Origin: Escherichia coli
GTDB lineage: Bacteria > Pseudomonadota > Gammaproteobacteria > Enterobacterales > Enterobacteriaceae
DNA length: 64,000 nt
Reading direction: 5' to 3' (one strand)
NCBI RefSeq assembly: GCF_003334305.1
Contig: NZ_QOWS01000013.1
Shown: positions 24,234-26,906 of the stretch, piece by piece
Numbering within the stretch: the first letter of the stretch is position 1
How the letters are laid out: every line of letters begins with the position of its first letter
The notes under the pieces: generated by a model
Databases searched by the model: none
Told to the model about the DNA's origin: nothing
The model's input: the letters and a program-made list of their open reading frames with translations, nothing else
Translations under genes and position numbers: made by a program

Positions 24234-26906
24234 ATGACAGATGTAACGATTAAAACGCTGGCCGCAGAGCGACAGACCTCCGTGGAACGCCTGGTACAGC
24301 AATTTGCTGATGCAGGTATCCGGAAGTCTGCTGACGACTCTGTGTCTGCACAAGAGAAACAGACTTTGATTGACCACCTGAATCAGAAAAATTCAGGCCC
24401 GGACAAATTGACGCTGCAACGTAAAACACGCAGCACCCTTAACATTCCTGGTACCGGTGGAAAAAGCAAATCGGTACAAATCGAAGTCCGCAAGAAACGC
24501 ACCTTTGTGAAACGCGATCCGCAAGAGGCTGAACGCCTTGCAGCGGAAGAGCAAGCGCAGCGTGAAGCGGAAGAGCAAGCCCGTCGTGAGGCAGAAGAAT
24601 CGGCTAAACGCGAGGCGCAACAAAAAGCTGAACGTGAGGCCGCAGAACAAGCTAAGCGTGAAGCTGCTGAACAAGCGAAACGTGAAGCTGCGGAAAAAGA
24701 CAAAGTGAGCAATCAACAAGACGATATGACTAAAAACGCCCAGGCTGAAAAAGCCCGCCGTGAGCAGGAAGCTGCAGAGCTCAAGCGTAAAGCTGAAGAA
24801 GAAGCGCGTCGTAAACTCGAAGAAGAAGCACGTCGCGTTGCTGAAGAAGCACGTCGTATGGCGGAAGAAAACAAATGGACTGATAACGCGGAACCGACTG
24901 AAGATTCCAGCGATTATCATGTCACAACTTCTCAACATGCTCGCCAGGCAGAAGACGAAAGCGATCGTGAAGTCGAAGGCGGCCGTGGCCGTGGTCGTAA
25001 CGCGAAAGCAGCGCGTCCGAAGAAAGGCAACAAACACGCTGAATCAAAAGCTGATCGTGAAGAAGCACGCGCAGCAGTACGTGGCGGTAAAGGCGGAAAA
25101 CGTAAAGGTTCTTCCCTGCAGCAAGGCTTCCAGAAGCCAGCTCAGGCCGTTAACCGTGACGTTGTGATCGGCGAAACCATCACCGTTGGCGAACTGGCGA
25201 ACAAGATGGCGGTTAAAGGCTCTCAGGTCATCAAAGCGATGATGAAACTGGGCGCAATGGCAACCATCAACCAGGTTATCGATCAGGAAACCGCACAGCT
25301 GGTTGCTGAAGAGATGGGCCACAAAGTTATCCTGCGTCGTGAAAACGAGCTGGAAGAGGCGGTAATGAGCGACCGTGACACGGGGGCTGCGGCTGAACCG
25401 CGCGCGCCGGTTGTGACCATCATGGGTCACGTTGACCACGGTAAAACCTCTCTGCTGGACTACATTCGTTCAACGAAAGTGGCCTCTGGCGAAGCGGGCG
25501 GCATTACCCAGCACATTGGTGCATACCACGTTGAAACTGAAAACGGCATGATCACCTTCCTGGACACCCCGGGGCACGCCGCGTTTACTTCAATGCGTGC
25601 ACGTGGTGCGCAGGCAACGGACATCGTAGTCCTGGTTGTTGCTGCCGACGACGGCGTGATGCCGCAGACCATCGAAGCAATCCAGCACGCGAAAGCGGCG
25701 CAGGTACCGGTGGTGGTTGCAGTGAACAAGATCGATAAACCAGAAGCCGATCCGGATCGTGTTAAGAACGAACTCTCCCAGTATGGCATCCTGCCGGAAG
25801 AGTGGGGCGGTGAAAGCCAGTTCGTACACGTATCTGCGAAAGCGGGTACCGGTATCGATGAACTGCTGGACGCTATCCTGCTGCAGGCGGAAGTTCTGGA
25901 GCTAAAAGCGGTACGTAAAGGTATGGCGAGCGGTGCGGTTATCGAATCCTTCCTCGATAAAGGTCGTGGTCCGGTTGCTACCGTTCTGGTACGTGAAGGT
26001 ACTCTGCACAAGGGCGATATCGTTCTGTGTGGCTTCGAATACGGTCGTGTTCGTGCGATGCGTAACGAACTGGGTCAGGAAGTGCTGGAAGCGGGTCCGT
26101 CCATTCCGGTGGAAATCCTCGGCCTGTCCGGCGTACCGGCTGCGGGTGATGAAGTTACCGTTGTACGTGACGAGAAGAAAGCGCGTGAAGTTGCACTGTA
26201 TCGTCAGGGTAAATTCCGCGAAGTTAAACTGGCGCGTCAGCAGAAATCTAAACTCGAGAACATGTTCGCCAACATGACCGAAGGCGAAGTTCACGAAGTG
26301 AACATCGTCCTGAAGGCAGACGTACAGGGTTCTGTGGAAGCGATCTCCGACTCCTTGCTGAAACTGTCTACTGACGAAGTTAAAGTGAAGATCATCGGTT
26401 CTGGCGTAGGTGGTATCACCGAAACCGACGCCACCCTGGCTGCGGCGTCCAACGCCATCCTGGTTGGCTTCAACGTACGTGCTGATGCCTCTGCACGTAA
26501 AGTGATTGAAGCGGAAAGCCTGGATCTGCGTTACTACTCCGTCATCTATAACCTGATTGACGAAGTGAAAGCGGCGATGAGCGGTATGCTGTCTCCGGAA
26601 CTGAAACAGCAGATTATCGGTCTGGCGGAAGTTCGTGACGTGTTCAAATCGCCGAAATTTGGTGCCATCGCAGGCTGTATGGTTACCGAAGGTGTGGTTA
26701 AACGTCACAACCCGATCCGCGTTCTGCGTGACAACGTGGTTATCTACGAAGGCGAGCTGGAGTCCCTGCGCCGCTTCAAAGATGACGTTAACGAAGTCCG
26801 TAACGGTATGGAATGTGGTATCGGCGTTAAGAACTACAACGACGTCCGCACTGGCGATGTGATCGAAGTATTCGAAATCATCGAGATCCAACGTACCATC
26901 GCTTAA
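24234..26906 (+). CDS. infB: Translation initiation factor IF-2
   Basis: 890-aa ORF; GTPase motif [12 protein letters not shown]; charged repetitive N-terminal region. Confidence 0.98.

Follow-up and report, generated by a model that had tools for sequence, protein, structure and literature searches.

We conclude with high confidence that infB in the window, the 64,000-nucleotide stretch of Escherichia coli DNA analyzed here, is the known three-isoform gene, that its internal starts lie beside an array of 24-nt repeats, and that rare in-frame gains and losses of whole repeat units would alter only the tether length of IF2-alpha. The coding sequence occupies positions 24234..26906 on the plus strand (start ATG at 24234-24236 in the ORF list) and encodes the 890-residue full-length factor, called IF2-alpha or IF2-1. 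Directly 5′ of it, in a common operon, the ORF list places nusA (22722..24209, plus strand); the gene is the infB orthologue of the nusA-infB operon. Matches to complete E. coli genomes identify the window as chromosomal E. coli DNA. The first 867 nt of infB (24234-25100) have a match in 5426/5426 of these genomes, labelled infB in all records listed, with 100% identity to strain AR_452 and 99.8% to K-12. One of the 5434 infB matches that this query found in E. coli genomes belongs to a record designated a plasmid. The 0.2% divergence from K-12 over these 867 nt does not touch the region of interest, as positions 24480-24780 are identical to K-12 MG1655. The codon numbers, the 890-aa length, and the operon annotated in K-12 (metY tRNA, rimP, nusA, infB, rbfA, and truB) are all shared. 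At the protein level, the first 389 residues match residues 1-389 of chain f of PDB entry 3JCJ, "Translation initiation factor IF-2" (E = 2.4e-229). The locus is the known enterobacterial three-isoform infB locus and not a variant of it.

Two in-frame codons within infB had been singled out in the original prediction, a GTG at codon 158 (24705-24707) and an ATG at codon 165. Both the position and the arithmetic are right: 24234+157*3 = 24705 reads GTG, and 24234+164*3 = 24726 reads ATG. On the plus strand, the IF2-beta (IF2-2) start occupies 24705..24707, and the IF2-gamma (IF2-3, or beta′) start occupies 24726..24728; each assignment draws on the sequence, on conservation among relatives, and on the literature. 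A lone in-frame GTG or ATG carries no significance, since NTG occurs in frame 46 times in infB. Among these 46, ATG165 ranks 2nd and GTG158 6th in accessibility, corresponding to the 99th and 92nd percentiles among all codon positions. Pairing with the anti-Shine-Dalgarno sequence is calculated at −3.5 kcal/mol for GTG158 and −1.9 kcal/mol for ATG165, compared to −6.5 kcal/mol for AUG1. A Shine-Dalgarno scan of the same 46 codons did not single out the internal starts, and because they rank 9th and 30th, the scan is unusable as evidence for them. With weak Shine-Dalgarno matches and only sixth place in accessibility for GTG158, the two starts could not be recognized from such sequence features by themselves.

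Their identification rests instead on identity with E. coli infB, on the K-12 literature, and on conservation. An internal start in infB was reported in the mid-1980s, and a second one followed around 1991-92. Evidence from N-terminal peptides is reported for three in-frame starts, AUG1, GUG158, and AUG165 (PMC13245402), which give rise to IF2-1/alpha, IF2-2/beta, and IF2-3/gamma, respectively (PMC13245402; PMC3334882; PMC12297416). The alpha/beta/gamma naming is used together with a definition of Domain I as residues 1-157 (PMC12297416). The short IF2 forms are lost upon the substitutions g474c, at the third base of codon 158, and t494c, at the second base of codon 165 (PMC3334882). Initiation-site profiling, which had been proposed as a check on the two codons, is also available in published form: a specific Ribo-RET peak appears at the known infB internal site (bioRxiv 10.1101/520783). 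Overall, initiation at both internal codons is documented in K-12 and BL21-type strains (PMC3334882; PMC13245402; bioRxiv 10.1101/520783). Judged by DNA identical to that of K-12, GTG158 and ATG165 of the window can be equated with these published IF2-beta and IF2-gamma starts, just as had been predicted.

To the window we added 80 related loci, one per species and nearly all from other Enterobacterales, for a total of 81 sequences. Codon 158 is GTG in 81/81, despite the existence of four valine codons. The surrounding codons GCG-GAA (153-154) and CAA (161) are likewise invariant in 81/81 sequences, and AGC159 is kept in 77/81. Synonymous codon entropy over the 9-codon window 153-161 is 0.096 bits, compared to a mean of 0.776 bits, and is the minimum found in codons 1-299. 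These nine codons form the conserved internal initiation region (GCGGAAAAAGACAAAGTGAGCAATCAA; 24690..24716, plus strand), whose conservation in the relatives holds at the nucleotide level. Synonymous conservation is restricted to codons ~151-164, and the entropy of the repeat units upstream is 0.6-1.2 bits. The low synonymous entropy around GTG158 points clearly to a function at the nucleotide level that overlaps with protein coding.

The second internal start is present in most of the relatives, with ATG165 found in 73/81 sequences. In Trabulsiella, Yokenella, Mangrovibacter, Atlantibacter, and one record labelled Citrobacter freundii M-21, another codon stands in its place, and all of these keep GTG158. 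Because ATG165 is absent in several genera, the third isoform, IF2-gamma, is not universal in the family. The spacing differs as well: the next methionine lies 8 codons from V158 in most species, compared to 7 in E. coli. The record labelled C. freundii M-21 (NZ_JAALBX010000005.1) groups by its infB N-terminal region with Atlantibacter and apart from the other Citrobacter loci. The two have in common an additional 8-aa unit and a DEATK motif replacing DDMTK, which suggests that the genome is mislabelled.

When infB was first sequenced, its unusual periodic Ala/Glu/Arg/Lys sequence was already remarked upon. In the window, this sequence contains an upstream tandem array of eight 24-nt (8-aa) units (24519..24710, plus strand), which belongs to the IF2-alpha-only Domain I. 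Tandem Repeats Finder reports period-24 arrays at 24542-24598 and 24585-24699, and a repeat search finds six in-register copies at 24-nt spacing beginning at 24519, with two further copies 3′ of the starts. Neighboring units are 80-90% identical in DNA. At a lag of 24 nt, the identity within the array is 0.673, compared to 0.368 ± 0.038 in 5000 codon shuffles (z=8.0), and 0/5000 shuffles reach the observed value. Because the codon shuffles fall so far below it, the 24-nt periodicity is not a by-product of a composition rich in A, E, R, K, and Q. The last unit, unit T (AAEKDKVS; 24687-24710, plus strand), was assigned from the codon register; it is degenerate, matching its neighbor at 15/24 positions, and it holds GTG158. 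Beyond the starts lies a second, shorter repeat block, EEARRKLE / EEARRVA / EEARRMA (24798..24863, plus strand), which is made of 24- and 21-nt units and is present in all three isoforms. It was detected by Tandem Repeats Finder, the repeat search, and a lag test (z=3.9 at lag 21).

The tandem repeats that the original prediction described as encoding an 18-aa peptide are found at residues 137-154, with the quoted 23-mers at 24645-24667 and 24669-24691; with eight units, the array is more extensive than that description. The accompanying claim, that the starts come immediately after the repeats, is correct in placing them at the 3′ edge of the upstream array. It needs refinement in that GTG158 lies inside the last, degenerate unit and that the starts fall within a stretch of ~90 nt 5′ of the second block.

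With the starts in this position, the array itself could contribute to the internal initiation signal: RNA that is rich in A and G and pairs poorly would keep the region open or offer a standby site for the ribosome, and the proximity of the array to the starts would then matter in the mRNA as well as in the protein. Few parts of infB are as accessible as the surroundings of the starts, and both internal starts, with their weak Shine-Dalgarno matches, need some other aid. However, when a deletion leaves only 32 nt 5′ of GUG158, a remnant that comprises unit T and part of unit 6, IF2-2/3 are still made (PMC3334882). Synonymous constraint is confined to the immediate surroundings of the starts, and units farther upstream vary freely. 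In addition, natural alleles exist with anywhere from one to four copies of the AAEQAKRE unit. The 32-nt result and the confinement of the synonymous constraint disfavor a role for the array as an mRNA signal, and we consider such a role unlikely.

The repeats had also been predicted to be prone to slippage and to vary in length between strains. We screened 5426 complete E. coli genomes for length variants using blastn and a 321-nt wild-type query (24460-24780), counting as variants those with less than 95% identity. Megablast was dropped in favor of blastn because a 24-nt gap splits its alignment into two 100%-identical pieces, hiding the variants. In further searches, a natural +48 allele and synthetic -48 and -45 alleles served as queries that rank variants to the top. 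The two counts agree: 27/5426 genomes fall below 95% identity with the wild-type query, and the allele queries yield 28 upstream variants, in a census that could miss indels of 3-12 nt or variant types not nested in the queries used. By size, these are +24 nt in 12 genomes, +48 nt in 3, -24 nt in 11, -48 nt in 1, and -96 nt in 1. Ten of the -24 variants are credible. The eleventh, Nissle 1917 (NZ_CP007799.1), was set aside as an assembly artefact on account of a scrambled array in a partial pseudogene. The annotation of that record gives infB as a partial pseudogene "in the middle of a contig," and infB-like sequence occurs at 4 places.

Credible variants of the upstream array number 27/5426 (0.50%), leaving the canonical length in 99.5% of genomes. 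As a control, we queried the same genomes with a 321-nt segment of the G domain (25800-26120), for which 0/5426 fall below 95% identity. Compared to the rest of infB, the repeats are a true hotspot for indels, and the variants are rare. The comparison of strains bears out the predicted length polymorphism. The broader description of the region as slippage-prone holds only in part: variation is specific to the repeats (27 upstream, 34 downstream, and 0/5426 in the control), but it is uncommon.

We fetched sequences for 24 of the 27 variants and assigned the remaining three (ETEC4079, AST198, and M15) by their identical scores and spans. All of the fetched variants gain or lose whole 8-aa units, in register and within an intact annotated CDS, leaving unit T, GTG158, and all downstream sequence unchanged. 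The indels cluster at the two most similar pairs of neighboring units. The copy number of AAEQAKRE is 1, 2 (the wild type), 3, or 4, and one 16-aa segment of the array is duplicated or collapsed in some alleles. Three further changes were each seen once: a duplication of AQQKAERE, a loss of two units, and a loss of four units. Natural examples of altered copy number are EC130 with one copy, DETEC-S565 with three, OkiPb01695 with four, and N68, which is shorter by 32 aa. In DNA, there are 14 distinct array structures other than the wild type. The protein with three AAEQAKRE copies arises as "5 6 6," "5 hybrid 6," and "5* 5 6," and on both the T and C alleles of a SNP at 24794. Arrival at the same protein allele by different DNA routes, as read from the array structure and this one flanking SNP, indicates that the events are probably recurrent, a pattern that slippage or unequal recombination would produce.

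The variants might instead be products of sequencing or assembly, with an array that is truly invariant in E. coli. The Nissle 1917 record, with its partial pseudogene, scrambled array, and 4 infB places, is an example of such an artefact, and the canonical length seen in 99.5% of genomes would fit this explanation. Likewise, a 1997 paper by Steffensen on clinical isolates reportedly called IF2 "an extremely conserved protein" in its title. However, the other 27 variants are clean, in-frame changes of whole units in intact annotated CDSs, and they come from many laboratories, hosts, and countries. The variant proteins also recur in unrelated records: WP_000133053.1 in 7 genomes, WP_000133055.1 in 3, WP_040062784.1 in 3, and WP_000133037.1 in 2. 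Assembly collapse is unlikely because a 48-nt repeat is far below any read length, and the G-domain control contains no indels. We regard a purely artefactual origin as very unlikely.

Length variation extends to the downstream block, which differs from the wild type in 34/5426 genomes representing ~5 lineages; here, too, the totals from the allele queries and the wild-type query agree. A -24 nt change, the loss of EEARRKLE, is found in 29 near-identical genomes ("Esc1-29" plus CNR20191027) that evidently represent one clone. The -21 nt change, a loss of EEARRVA, occurs in AR_0149, H32, and AH21H025, and a +21 nt change occurs in CMZE046.

Among the 81 sequences, the length of the upstream array, measured from V92 to V158, is 66 aa in 68. 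Phytobacter, Kosakonia, Mangrovibacter, and Atlantibacter have exactly one extra 8-aa unit, of the KRDAEERA or KREAEEKA type, which aligns at ~24630. This fixed additional unit in one group of genera, together with the recurrence of events at the same two unit pairs in E. coli, is what would be seen if diversifying or adaptive selection acted on copy number and made it a dial for tuning the length of the IF2-alpha tether. Domain I also has isoform-specific partners and phenotypes on which such selection could act (PMC3334882; bioRxiv 10.1101/2025.02.02.631968; PMC12297416). Nevertheless, variants amount to just 0.5% of genomes, and apart from the one clonal series in the downstream block, every allele is uncommon. 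The array length is kept in most of the relatives, and the metadata of the variant genomes show no visible association with host or pathotype. Rarity of this degree fits purifying selection or near-neutral drift and not a diversifying system, and we consider selection for variable length very unlikely. In its most specific form, to which we give even less credence, this idea would make 1-4 AAEQAKRE and 0-2 AEEQAQRE units a recurrently mutating, selectable length dial for IF2-alpha that leaves the beta and gamma forms untouched. If that were true, the reach from N1 to the body of the factor would tune the functions of IF2-alpha in transcription-translation coupling, replication restart, or cold condensates in particular lineages.

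Copy-number change in a tandem DNA repeat within a coding region, and its recurrence, are features that infB has in common with contingency loci. We rejected phase variation through a contingency repeat. All of the upstream and downstream changes are multiples of 3 (21, 24, 48, or 96 nt) in intact CDSs, and upstream variants occur in only 27/5426 genomes, well short of the high frequency expected of such a locus. With no change that breaks the frame and a variant frequency of 0.5%, infB is not a contingency locus. Unlike those loci, it has a 24-nt unit that preserves the frame, and no on/off switching results.

What, then, do the repeats encode? We ran AlphaFold2 on a 24-sequence alignment. 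The model consists of the small N1 fold, a segment of β-hairpin, and then one uninterrupted helix (residues 96-212) that passes through both blocks. Confidence by pLDDT is 81-89 in the upstream array and 77-84 across the starts and downstream block, with a pTM of only 0.28. AlphaFold tends toward long helices for charged repeats. In the PDB, the N1 subdomain is present alone in 1ND9 (residues 2-50), and full-length chains are found in cryo-EM entries. Published work describes the region as a flexible linker or IDR (bioRxiv 10.1101/2025.02.02.631968; PMC12297416). Domain I binds NusA and is joined to the factor via the linker (PMC12297416), and the beta form of IF2 loses RNA-driven phase separation (bioRxiv 10.1101/2025.02.02.631968). 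Given the model, the most likely role of the upstream array is to determine how long the tether is that connects N1 to the body of IF2-alpha. If helical, each 8-aa unit would contribute ~1.2 nm, as calculated from 8 x 0.15 nm. Because the starts of IF2-beta and IF2-gamma lie midway along the predicted helix, gain or loss of an upstream unit would alter IF2-alpha only.

The reading that we favor, a three-isoform gene with a tolerant repeat array, would work as follows. Ribosomes would initiate at AUG1 to make IF2-alpha and independently at GUG158 and AUG165 to make IF2-beta and IF2-gamma. The internal initiation region is short, A-rich, and weakly structured, with a weak Shine-Dalgarno match and a nucleotide sequence held constant across the sampled Enterobacterales. 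Together, the two arrays encode one long, charged, predicted α-helix, and in IF2-alpha this helix would tether the NusA-binding N1 subdomain to the factor body. Because neighboring units are so similar in DNA, replication slippage or unequal recombination, the mechanisms that we infer, may occasionally add or remove whole 8-aa units. Since these changes stay in frame and spare both the last unit and the starts, the expected consequence is a change in the tether length of IF2-alpha alone. Alleles that are recurrent yet rare would then be tolerated variants, either mildly deleterious or neutral.

Several known systems resemble parts of this arrangement. In the E. coli Ribo-RET set, clpB and mrcB likewise produce a full-length protein and an N-terminally truncated one from an in-frame internal start (bioRxiv 10.1101/520783). 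What sets infB apart from these genes is a pair of internal starts close together, with a tandem repeat array on either side. The periodic sequence rich in E, R, K, A, and Q, with its predicted uninterrupted helix of ~117 residues, is reminiscent of single α-helix (ER/K-type) spacers. It differs from canonical ER/K helices, which have a 4+4 charge pattern, in its period of 8 residues; moreover, its helix comes from prediction, whereas the literature speaks of a linker or IDR.

With its internal starts, infB is a classic case of one bacterial gene encoding several proteins. The starts had been identified correctly from sequence alone, and the present analysis matters little beyond confirmation. 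Our additions to this picture are modest: a census of low-frequency, whole-unit indels; the finding that, in the first third of the gene and among the 81 sequences, synonymous constraint is strongest at GTG158 and its 27-nt surroundings; and the lack of ATG165 in several genera. Groups that study IF2-alpha in NusA binding, DNA repair, and cold condensates could use the natural copy-number alleles as an existing set of tether-length variants. On the opposite strand, two antisense ORFs of 109 and 214 aa (window positions 24383-25037, minus strand) overlap the repeat region.
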